Source: an uncultured bacterium (GTDB taxonomy: Bacteria > Zixibacteria > MSB-5A5 > UBA10806). Taken from it: a DNA stretch of 64,000 nt. The stretch is from positions 1-64,000 of the forward strand of contig CBEUCH010000004.1 in the NCBI GenBank assembly GCA_965541585.1, in the 5' to 3' direction. Made by a program: the position numbers. Position 1 is the stretch's first letter. Each line of letters starts with the position of its first letter. Positions 6,001 to 9,000 of the stretch are shown here, one piece after another.

Positions 6001-9000
6001 AATTTGTGCATCGCCAAGTAGAAGTAGCCAAGGCAATTGGATCGGAGAAGGCTTACTCAGAGCCTTTCCGTCAGCGAGAATACAGGACGAGCTCCCCTTA
6101 ATCTTTACTTTAGAAGCAGCATCCTCCTCGTAATGACATCATCTCCCGATGTCAGACGATAGAAGTAAGCTCCCGATGATATAGATTTATTATTGAGATT
6201 ATCCCCGTTCCAGACAAATAAATGTTCTCCTGCACCGAGTACCCTGTCTGCCAATTTATTCACCAGCCGACCCCGTATATCGAAAACCTCAAGCCTGGTT
6301 TTGGCTGTTTTTGGCAGGTAGATTCTTATTTTTGTCGATGAATTGAAAGGATTCGGATAAGCCTGAAACAGCTCTGCCTGGCGCGGCTTTGTCGGCTCAT
6401 CTCCTGTTCCTAATTCATTTAGAATATCCTCGAGCGCCTCGATGAAATCCACCATTTCCTCCATGAGCCCGGTGGAAACGCGAAGATGATGCTGCATGCC
6501 CCAGCCATTGCGAACATAGATGTTTCTCGACGCCAGCTGGGCAGTGACCGAGCCGGCATCACGGCCGACATCCACCATGAAGAAATTGGTCTCCGACGGA
6601 ATATATGAAAGACCCATACGGTCGAATTCCCCGAAACAGTATTCCTTGGTTTGATTCGCCAGATCGATGGTGTCTGTCATATGTTGTTGAGAATCCAACG
6701 ATGCCTTGGCAGCTTCCAGGGACGGCCGTGAGACGGTAGCATACAACTGAAAAGAACGCATCGCGCTTAAAGCCTCCTGGAGTCCAATGGCATAACCGAT
6801 GCGGGCTCCGGCCAGCCCAAAGACCTTGCTGAAAGTACGAACCACCACAACGTTTTTGCCGGACCGCACTAAATCTATGGCCGAAGGATAATCGTTAACG
6901 GTGATATAGTGGTAATAAGCTTCATCTATTATAGTCACTACCTCCTCCGGCAAATCGTCGACAAAATCGGATAATTCCGATGGATCGATGATAGTTGCCG
7001 TGGGATTGTTGGGATTGGTGATACAAACCGCGGAAGTGTCCGAATCAACGCTTTCCCTCATGGCCTGGAGGTTCACGCGATGATTGTCGTCGAGATCGAC
7101 ATACCTTGCAACGGCCCCGAAGAACTGGCAATCGGCCGGGAACTGGCCGTAGGACGGGTTGGGAACGACCACGTTGGAGCCGGGTTCGCTGAATGCCATG
7201 GCGCAGAGTCGAAGAATCTCCGTGCCTCCGGCGCCGCAGATGATTTTATCGGCCCCTATATCGAATCGTGATGCTAACTGCGCCGCCAGAGATTCTGCAA
7301 ACCAGTCCGGATAGCGGTGAGCCATCTCAGCTTCGCTCTGTATGGCCTGGATAGCCTCCGGGGATGGCCCCAATGGATTTTCATTAAAACAGAGGCGGCC
7401 CACATAATCGGTGATCATTCCCTGATCAGGCACACTGTCCGCTATCGCCTTTCGGTCGAGGCCCAACAGAGCCACTGCCGTGGCCCCGGTTATCGTCCCG
7501 ATAAACCCTCGCCGCGAGATCCCGTTAAAAATTTCATTCATATCCGGCCTCCCCGGAATCGATCTCATGTTTTCCAAAAACAATGCGCCAGGCAAAGCAT
7601 ATCTCTGCTCATAGTGCATGGAGGTTTGCCCATCCAGGCGTTATGATCCGACCTCCAACGAGACATACCCCACCCCTGTAGAATAATACAGGTAGATGAA
7701 TTATATGTCAAGTGAAATTCACTTAACGATGATTCTAATTTCAACTTGACAACAGTTAACGTTAGGATAAATTAGACCTTGCTTTCGAGGGTGTCTATCC
7801 GACAATGAGGATAGATGGCGGCGTAGCTCAGCTGGTTAGAGCAGAGGAATCATAATCCTCGTGTCCGGGGTTCGAGTCCCTGCGCCGCTACTTGTGTTCA
7901 AGTAGTTACAGGGATTTATAGAAGACACACTAATACCCGCGTCAACATTAGGATATATGAAAAGGTCGCTCGTGGAGTGTGTTGACAATAAGTTTCCTTG
8001 CCCGATTTATGGGAGGGCCAGGTCAAGGTTGCATCAATTATGGGAGAAAATCTTTCTTTACCATCGTTGAATCATCCTTGGGATTCTCAGCTGATACTTA
8101 GAAATCAAAACGAACCGATAAATAGACATTATCATTCTTGTCAAATTGCGCCAAGAAGGTTGTATTCTTCTCTCCACCAAAGATATTTGCGCCCAATGCA
8201 ACGTTGAAATTGTCAGAAAGCTTGTAAGACGTTTGTGGCTGGATTAAGTAGTCGTTATCCGTTTGCTCATAGAAAGTGAACAGGGATAGCCTCCATGTCT
8301 GATGTTTTAGCAATTGCTCCAGGCGCAAGGTAACAGTGTCACGATACTCTTTCTGGGCTGGAAATCCCGCTGGAAGAAACCTATTATAAACGGTGTAATT
8401 GCCCATGATTTCCCCGTAGTATTGGATGCCGACAGTGAAATCTTCCCAAAACTGTCGTTGATATCCCAATAGAAAGCGCACCTGCGAGTTTGGTATAGTG
8501 GGATCGATGCCATTTTCATCTTCGCTGGAAGAATAATATCCAGTTTCAAAACTCAGAATGCCCCTCAATGCGTTCCCCTGGGCGCTCAATCCATAGACAG
8601 CTAGTTCGGGATAGAAGGAGATCGCTGTGGCGGGAGCACCGAAGTCATCCGGCCTCATGCTCGGCGTTCCCCAGAAACCATTGTAAGCATAGATTGAGAT
8701 ATCGAAGTTCATAATCTTACGGTATAAGCGCCAGGCAAGTTCTGTATTATTATATGTGGCCTCAGGTTTCGTTTCCTCGCGGGACTGAACATCCTCGAAG
8801 GGATCGTAAATAAAGAAATTTCGGGAGCTGGGGACGATGTCCGGCTGGAAGAAAGGAATAATCAACAATTCCGTATTAACTGCCCTTGAGGAAAACCGAA
8901 CACGAAACCCGTCTGCCCCTATCTTGAGATACTCAAGAGGCCTACCCGAGAAGAACGACATCCAGTCTTTTGGGAAAACATCGTTAATGAAAAGCAGGTC

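Follow-up and report, generated by a model that had tools for sequence, protein, structure and literature searches.

A HisC-like PLP enzyme of an uncultured Zixibacteria member carries a predicted Tat signal and a type A T9SS tail

Introduction

PtaA of fluorescent pseudomonads is a HisC-like, PLP-dependent transaminase that modifies the glutamate side chain of pyoverdine. According to the available text of a review that describes it, the enzyme is exported to the periplasm by the Tat pathway, folded and with its PLP bound, and both PtaA and PvdN need loading with PLP in the cytoplasm as well as Tat (PMC6206403). A folded protein that has crossed the inner membrane in this way can also travel further, as folded periplasmic cargo delivered by either Sec or Tat is passed on to the type II secretion system (PMC9127263, in the part accessible to us).

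Cargo proteins of the T9SS are described in other terms. In the accessible portions of the literature, all T9SS effectors are said to be Sec-dependent (PMC10202324), and the same description of T9SS cargo is given in PMC9251779 and PMC11285876. T9GPred, whose basis is a set of 102 experimental cargo proteins, goes so far as to demand the absence of a Tat signal (PMC10515386). The outer-membrane protein SprA is described as passing cargo that is folded and very large (PMC9251779). The available part of a 2026 review of Tat does not mention the T9SS (PMC13673990), and we found no described T9SS cargo with a Tat signal in the accessible text of the T9SS, Tat, PtaA and lineage literature that we searched, although supplementary cargo tables could hold cases. 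An initial annotation of the DNA analysed here had considered that such cargo may be known among Flavobacterium phosphatases; this is not borne out by PMC8115612, in whose accessible text the word ‘Tat’ never occurs.

That annotation had also proposed that a single protein of an uncultured Zixibacteria member joins a twin-arginine signal, a class I/II aminotransferase and a T9SS tail, in contrast to the Sec-only descriptions of T9SS cargo (PMC10202324, PMC10515386), and the contrast stands as far as the available text of these sources extends. Herein, we examine the architecture, distribution, probable origin and likely chemistry of this protein, and we weigh alternative readings of its route and function.

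Results

A gene for a three-part protein

The window that was analysed is a stretch of 64,000 nucleotides at the start of contig CBEUCH010000004.1. On its minus strand, positions 6105..7541 encode a 478 aa protein (termed P0001), as established by translation of the open reading frame, domain profiles and orthologues that share the start Met. The protein begins with MNEIFNGISRRGFI and consists, in this order, of a twin-arginine signal, a class I/II (I-beta, HisC-like) PLP enzyme and a type A T9SS C-terminal domain (CTD). Reading frame and domain profiles thus agree on the three-part organization originally proposed. The AlphaFold model of the protein, which has a mean pLDDT of 85.5, likewise places an all-beta tail after the PLP domain.

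A Shine-Dalgarno-like sequence, GGGGAGG, is read directly from the DNA at 7548..7554 (minus strand), 6 nt 5′ of the ATG. A longer version of the protein (504 aa) that would start at 7619 was considered and rejected, since both the ribosome binding site and the orthologues favour 7541. A promoter scan revealed a sigma70-like match (TTGACA-17-TATTAT, 11 of 12 positions) at 7683..7711 on the same strand, about 140 nt upstream of the gene. The scan returned 6 sites compared with 3.8 ± 2.2 in shuffled sequences, and the match is weak on its own. The next gene downstream carries a sigma70-like match of its own (5996-5967), and for this reason the gene probably forms a single transcription unit.

The combination is conserved beyond the order

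A homologue search, in which 8000 candidates were scored, yielded 539 proteins at E ≤ 1e-60. Those close homologues that carry a name are labelled Zixibacteria, in agreement with the placement of the host there. The conservation of the architecture in a large family, as claimed initially, is evident from the 120 best homologues. PF18962 and/or PF13860 are present in 119 of these, the exception being a 350-aa partial sequence, and 106 carry a Tat-like RR pattern within the first 70 aa. The remaining 14 begin 3′ of the motif and appear to have been called short. Every complete copy that we examined possesses both the RR motif and the CTD, and a few copies from long reads or contig edges are interrupted. 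Relative to P0001, the homologues average 58% identity over the signal, 62% over the catalytic domain and 56% over the CTD; for the linker the figure falls to 29%.

Within the order, 18 of the 24 genomes carry the gene. The initial annotation had found the family in none of 58 genomes outside the order at E ≤ 1e-110, but this confined range does not hold. A member with RR motif and CTD is encoded in one of 140 other genomes of the phylum (G114, E 6e-100), and further members come from records that bear the labels Marinimicrobia, Gemmatimonadota and Eisenbacteria. The family is not restricted to the order.

Tailed members were seen exclusively in genomes that encode SprA. All seven genomes with RR-plus-CTD members encode SprA, whereas it was found in none of ten Acidobacteria genomes whose relatives carry the RR motif alone. 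SprA does not entail the tail, as six of six Bacteroidota genomes with RR-only relatives also encode it. Within the phylum this kind of co-occurrence does not discriminate, because SprA (150 of 151 genomes) and TatC (148 of 151) are nearly universal there.

The tail resembles that of type A T9SS cargo

The CTD spans residues ~393-478 (6108..6365, minus strand) and is recognized by three profiles as well as in the structure model. PF18962 matches residues 395-473 with 32.4 bits (cut-off 27), PF13860 matches residues 402-465, and TIGR04183 reaches 43.4 bits (cut-off 23). The landmarks of the domain are a YPNPFN start, the F420-DIRGR loop with G424, and a terminal Lys. G424 is invariant in 98 of 98 aligned sequences, and the last residue is K or R in 83 of the 98. 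A loop of the FDxxGR type and the C-terminus are reported to be essential for export of RgpB in the accessible part of PMC11285876, and the tail of P0001 retains both this beta3-beta4 loop and the C-terminus.

The host genome encodes SprA (700 bits), PorU (687 against an equivalog cut-off of 420) and four proteins of the PorV family. One of these, conserved in all 24 genomes of the order, lies directly after porU and is split by an insert of ~530 aa. It scores above the PorV/PorQ family cut-off and below the PorV equivalog cut-off (178 versus 250). When the complex of the CTD with this PorV was predicted, the score was 0.76, compared with 0.01 for the best control; at least 97% of the contacts were shared among the three runs, and the pLDDT of the partners was at least 87. 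In calibration, 116 of 157 solved pairs reached the mark that this score passes, as did 2 of 215 mismatched pairs; these counts apply to the present alignments only approximately. The predicted interface is formed by residues 393-400, 420-427, 448-460 and 471-478, and thus takes in the loop and the terminal residues. Because structures of PorV-CTD complexes have already been solved (PMC10994853, in its accessible part), this result may reflect likeness to those complexes rather than binding.

In the same 98% complete genome, GldL and GldM were not found with models that scored three of four Bacteroidota controls, and divergent homologues are possible. GldM was found in none of 41 phylum genomes. 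GldK and GldN were also not found in the host, in a search that had no true positive control. In Flavobacterium johnsoniae the motor is needed for release of cargo from SprA, according to the accessible text of PMC10994853, and any handover to the T9SS in this organism would consequently involve a non-canonical T9SS. The simplest reading is that such a system works, since SprA is kept in nearly all genomes of the phylum although the motor was not found. The initial proposal that the enzyme is exported by Tat and then passed to the T9SS is therefore upheld as regards signal, CTD and their joint conservation, and it is qualified in its second step by the failure to find GldL and GldM.

These observations bear on the most serious alternative, in which the protein is exported by Tat but stays in the periplasm as PtaA does. 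In this case the CTD might not bring about secretion without a motor, might serve only as a tether to PorV or another partner in the envelope, or might be attached to a dimer too awkward for SprA. The absence of detectable GldL and GldM fits such an outcome, as do the periplasmic location of PtaA, the nearest characterized relative, and the frequent occurrence of tailless relatives, some of them in genomes with a T9SS. A keto acid would presumably also be supplied more easily in the periplasm. However, a conserved set of SprA, PorU and PorV is hard to explain without working secretion when 186 proteins of the genome carry a C-terminal CTD. (The initial count of T9SS-tailed proteins was 171; our recount gave 188 CTD-bearing reading frames, of which these 186 have the domain at the C-terminus.) Furthermore, both the loop needed for export and the terminal Lys are preserved in the tail, and contact with PorV is predicted through the two; the size and folded state of cargo attributed to SprA (PMC9251779, accessible text) argue against an obstacle at the translocon. 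We regard retention in the periplasm as unlikely, yet deserving of real weight, and passage onward through SprA and PorV as likely on the basis of sequence and modelling.

The catalytic domain is that of a transaminase-like PLP enzyme

The catalytic domain comprises residues ~47-378 (6408..7403, minus strand), as delimited by PF00155 (residues 50-365, E 2e-55), alignment and the structure model. Residues Y77, Y131, N179, D206, Y209, S238, K239, R247, R344 and R354 are all intact. The PLP Schiff-base lysine, K239, was assigned by alignment to the SK motif of 4r2n. Its codon lies at 6825..6827 (minus strand), within a TFSK motif, and the lysine is invariant in 98 of 98 aligned sequences. The initial annotation had found a PLP-lysine motif in 118 of the 120 best homologues; in our hands the pattern T[FLM]SK occurs in all 120. 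When mapped through an alignment with the Mycobacterium tuberculosis aromatic-type enzyme ArAT (PMC4703992, in the part available), the PLP residues proved invariant without exception, as did the two arginines of the small domain. The latter, R344 and R354, correspond to R322 and R330 of mArAT and would bind the substrate carboxylate. The top structural matches are 3ly1 (Z 39.9, rmsd 1.9 Å, 332 residues aligned), which is tied with 3get, and 4r2n.

Four pocket positions are occupied by T107, Y131, Q133 and A268. Invariant residues specific to the family and located near the active site include C51, W80, Q133, W347 and M349. The N-terminal lid is short, with only ~14 residues between the putative cleavage site and R49. 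Among profile models, TIGR01141, the HisC model, gives the top NCBIfam match at 256.8 bits, followed by NF006580 (PRK09105; 238.8) and NF051461 (PtaA; 221.4), and CobD reaches 166.3 bits. Each of the first three scores is below the cut-off of its model (276.55, 444 and 500, respectively). Both NF006580 and NF051461 align from residue 7-8 of the protein and hence span the signal as well as the enzyme.

Transaminase chemistry on a substrate other than that of the histidine pathway is likely. We take P0001 to be probably a dedicated transaminase, the open and polar active site of which would accept amino acids or bulky conjugates of them, and glutamate/2-oxoglutarate is the likely partner pair. 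The genes around ~20 orthologue loci offer no further hint, as none of the neighbours (among them a sigma-54 regulator, an NTPase and a methyltransferase) is conserved past close kin. We also note that a transaminase working outside the cell would require an external keto-acid partner, and that no conserved neighbour gene suggests one.

An exported PLP decarboxylase resembling CobD, or a lyase, would have no need of a keto-acid co-substrate and would suit an extracellular location. The fold is shared by CobD and further enzymes that are not transaminases, the family has its own invariants near the active site, and its pocket fits neither of two M. tuberculosis enzymes, HspAT and ArAT. The transaminase models nevertheless outscore CobD by a wide range of bits as given above, both dicarboxylate-binding arginines are invariant, and P0001 nests among Tat-signal transaminases of the PtaA type. 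We therefore consider a decarboxylase or lyase improbable and retain transamination as the preferred reading.

A conserved Tat signal that appears older than the tail

The Tat signal peptide (residues 1-34; 7440..7541, minus strand) was recognized by motif reading, family alignment and codon changes. It is composed of an n-region, the twin-arginine motif, a weakly hydrophobic h-region and a basic c-region (R30 K31), and lacks a lipobox. Cleavage is inferred to occur at an A-I-A site, after A34. The motif S9-R-R-G-F-I14 (7500..7517, minus strand) is apparent both in the sequence and in its conservation, with R10, R11 and F13 each at least 90% conserved among 98 aligned sequences. Of 106 family signals, 94 have a basic c-region, 101 an AxA-like site and none a lipobox. 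The peak hydropathy over 12 residues averages 1.74 ± 0.22 in these signals (n = 106) versus 2.47 ± 0.64 in 185 other CTD proteins, a comparison that is indicative only, as the windows were unequal. When the signal was compared with those of two close orthologues, synonymous codon changes outnumbered non-synonymous ones by 14:4 in one case and 11:4 in the other.

A strict scan of the genome returned 13 Tat-like reading frames, and P0001 is the only one of these with a CTD, in keeping with the initial claim that no other T9SS-tailed protein of this genome has a clear Tat signal. Several of the other 12 resemble redox proteins that bind metals or cofactors, which is what true Tat cargo should look like; Rieske and molybdopterin proteins were confirmed for two. 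One further CTD protein, encoded at 79321-80727 of contig C16, has QRRKVI near its start and fits a looser pattern, with an otherwise ordinary Sec-like signal. TatA and TatC had been reported as present, and we located TatC at C9:71470 and one TatA/B/E match at C5:333. No separate TatB was seen in the host genome.

The relationship of signal and tail was examined in a FastTree phylogeny of catalytic domains with 132 rows, for which 49 non-RR representatives were dropped at random and 25 of 121 close family sequences were kept; PtaA itself is not among the sequences. The CTD-bearing clade is nested within a 74-leaf RR clade (support 0.979), and a loose pattern flags RR in 4 of the 58 leaves outside it. 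The best scores of the RR-only relatives are on PRK09105 and PtaA-type models. This nesting among tailless Tat-signal aminotransferases indicates that the Tat signal is the older trait and that the tail was added later to an enzyme that was already routed through Tat. In a tree of tails, the CTD of P0001 falls into a single clade together with 30 of 33 family CTDs, separate from the 182 other CTDs of the genome that were included (support 0.86). The tails of the three deepest family members group elsewhere in this comparison of 88 residues, which hints, weakly, at repeated gain or swapping of the tail. Two nested members have no such domain: P0129 lacks a tail, and P0128 carries a fibronectin-III-like tail instead (leads below 0.9). 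The tail is consequently dispensable in some lineages.

It might be argued that the RR pair is incidental and that P0001 is ordinary Sec-dependent T9SS cargo that acquires PLP after export. The signal was judged by motifs and not by a trained predictor, and several Sec-type CTD proteins of the same genome start with MRR. In contrast to an incidental pair, however, the full S-R-R-x-F-h consensus is at least 90% conserved, it is accompanied by a weak h-region and a basic c-region, the RR clade appears ancestral, and the related PtaA, like PvdN, depends on PLP loading before export (PMC6206403, accessible text). Sec export is accordingly very improbable in our estimation, and export by Tat is very likely as judged from sequence.

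The top TIGR01141 match and the automatic labelling of many homologues as HisC might suggest a histidinol-phosphate aminotransferase of the cytoplasm whose extensions are accidental. This reading is largely excluded, and P0001 is not HisC: it does not reach the cut-off of the model, searches of the host genome for HisD and HisB found neither, and a single one of the 24 order genomes has the two enzymes. The latter genome (like G079) carries a separate protein above the HisC cut-off that belongs to another clade. The HisC-like proteins of the phylum also fall outside the RR clade, and the initial exclusion of a role in histidine synthesis is thereby confirmed.

Discussion

A proposed route through two membranes

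The architecture of P0001, together with the secretion genes of its host, is consistent with the following route. The protein would fold in the cytoplasm, bind PLP and dimerize there, as other I-beta aminotransferases and PtaA lead one to expect; the genome encodes the PLP synthase PdxS. It would then cross the inner membrane through TatA and TatC, a step strongly indicated by its sequence, and signal peptidase would presumably cut after A34. The type A CTD is predicted to dock on PorV at the SprA translocon. After passage of the outer membrane, PorU would remove the tail and either free the enzyme or leave it anchored at the surface, by analogy with Porphyromonas gingivalis and F. johnsoniae. 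Outside the cell, the enzyme would serve as a transaminase at the alpha-amino position of amino acids or their bulky conjugates, as PtaA does, and would not act on histidinol phosphate. In evolutionary terms, the tail would be a late addition to an old lineage of periplasmic aminotransferases exported by Tat. Taken jointly, Tat export, passage through SprA and PorV to the surface, and transaminase chemistry on a non-histidine substrate form a reading that we hold with moderate confidence.

A broader proposal is more tentative, and we give it somewhat less than even credence. A Zixibacteria-like T9SS, made up of SprA, PorU and a split PorV with no recognizable GldLM, may display a Tat-delivered PLP homodimer on the surface for extracellular nitrogen chemistry, beside ~185 other CTD cargo proteins. 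Transfer from Tat to the T9SS might then be a general route for cofactor-loaded enzymes, gained when a CTD is appended to periplasmic Tat enzymes.

The step from Tat to the T9SS is mechanistically plausible, given that SprA passes folded proteins and that the type II system takes Tat cargo. The family provides a direct test of whether SprA accepts enzymes that were folded before Tat export and are probably dimeric. If it does, cofactor enzymes have a route to surface display, and predictions of secretomes miss a class of cargo. The accessible portions of current T9SS reviews do not allow for a combination of Tat and T9SS on one PLP enzyme. The system also raises the questions of how a T9SS without a recognizable GldLM motor releases its cargo, and of what role a PLP enzyme plays outside the cell.

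Comparison with known systems

P0001 has the same fold as the M. tuberculosis enzymes HspAT (Rv1600) and ArAT (Rv3772), with the same PLP-binding residues and both small-domain arginines. It differs from them in its pocket, which reads T/Y/Q/A rather than N/Y/M/Y (HspAT) or V/F/L/F (ArAT), in the short N-terminal lid, in the export signals at both ends and in a genome in which HisD and HisB were not found.

The likeness to Tat-to-T2SS transfer lies in the onward movement of a folded, Tat-delivered protein to an outer-membrane machine for folded cargo. In this case, however, the outer-membrane step would be carried out by SprA and PorV, with the CTD as the basis for selection.

With type A T9SS cargo the protein shares a beta-sandwich that scores above the PF18962 and TIGR04183 cut-offs, the FDxxGR loop with its Gly, the terminal Lys and predicted binding to PorV, in a host that encodes SprA, PorU and PorV. 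Its signal is of the Tat type rather than the Sec type, which places it outside a definition of T9SS cargo that calls for a Sec signal and no Tat signal. The cargo would also be loaded with a cofactor and presumably dimeric, and the host, which is not a member of the Bacteroidota, lacks detectable GldL and GldM and possesses a PorV split by a large insert.

PtaA remains the nearest counterpart. Like PtaA, P0001 is an I-beta HisC-like PLP enzyme with a twin-arginine signal, and the PtaA/PRK09105 grouping includes PDB 3ly1, one of its top structural matches. Unlike PtaA, it scores below the NF051461 and NF006580 cut-offs, adds a type A CTD and has invariant pocket residues of its own. Export of a HisC-like PLP enzyme by Tat is thus already known from the accessible account of PtaA (PMC6206403), and only the tail is new. 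P0001 resembles PtaA in how it would cross the inner membrane and type A cargo in how it would pass the outer one, without belonging strictly to either group.

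Variation in the aminotransferase family and its genomic setting

Two homologues that nest within the aminotransferase family on the catalytic-domain tree carry the twin-arginine signal without a type A T9SS C-terminal domain (CTD). One (P0128) ends in a fibronectin-III-like domain that may mark another sorting signal, and the other (P0129) has no tail at all. At least two copies of the three-part gene are present in several genomes of the order (G129, G157, G151, G158 and G160).

Upstream of the aminotransferase gene is a divergent tRNA-Met (CAT) gene (window 7817-7891, + strand). 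Beyond this tRNA are an MMPL/LolA-like cluster and the genes for DoxX, TrmB and an LVIVD protein (8098-20753). In one close relative these genes are not adjacent to the aminotransferase, which there adjoins the TrmB-like gene. The block is possibly an insertion at the tRNA-Met (CAT) gene.

A second HisC-like protein of this genome (locus L046, 7519-8694, contig C1) has no signal peptide, and its gene has a polysaccharide export gene on one side and a CoA-ligase-like gene on the other. It therefore probably functions in surface-glycan synthesis.

Other putative exported and surface-sorted proteins

The window encodes two more proteins with Tat signals, a Rieske protein (about 36300-36800) and a molybdopterin oxidoreductase (61626-64000), both on the - strand and both lacking a CTD. 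The next gene downstream of the aminotransferase gene (3302-5899, - strand) encodes another CTD protein, of 865 aa, whose single chain carries cohesin as well as dockerin type I domains. A Cys-rich secreted protein of 1019 aa (15429-18488, + strand) terminates in an IPTL-CTERM sorting motif, which would be a second surface-sorting route in the genome.

Components of the secretion system

SprA is found in 150 of 151 sampled genomes of the phylum, and the genome studied here also encodes PorU and PorV. The motor proteins GldL and GldM and the ring proteins GldK and GldN were not detected in this genome, and GldM was found in none of 41 genomes of the phylum. This T9SS has no recognisable motor and would have about 186 putative cargo proteins to serve.

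Directly after porU lies a gene for a PorV-family protein of 863 aa (L090:11580-14171; contig C11, 31579-34170). Some 530 inserted residues split its barrel. The gene is kept in all 24 order genomes sampled, with most copies full-length. The insert contains a match to the Reg_prop repeat (PF07494), a feature reminiscent of the propellers of PorZ.
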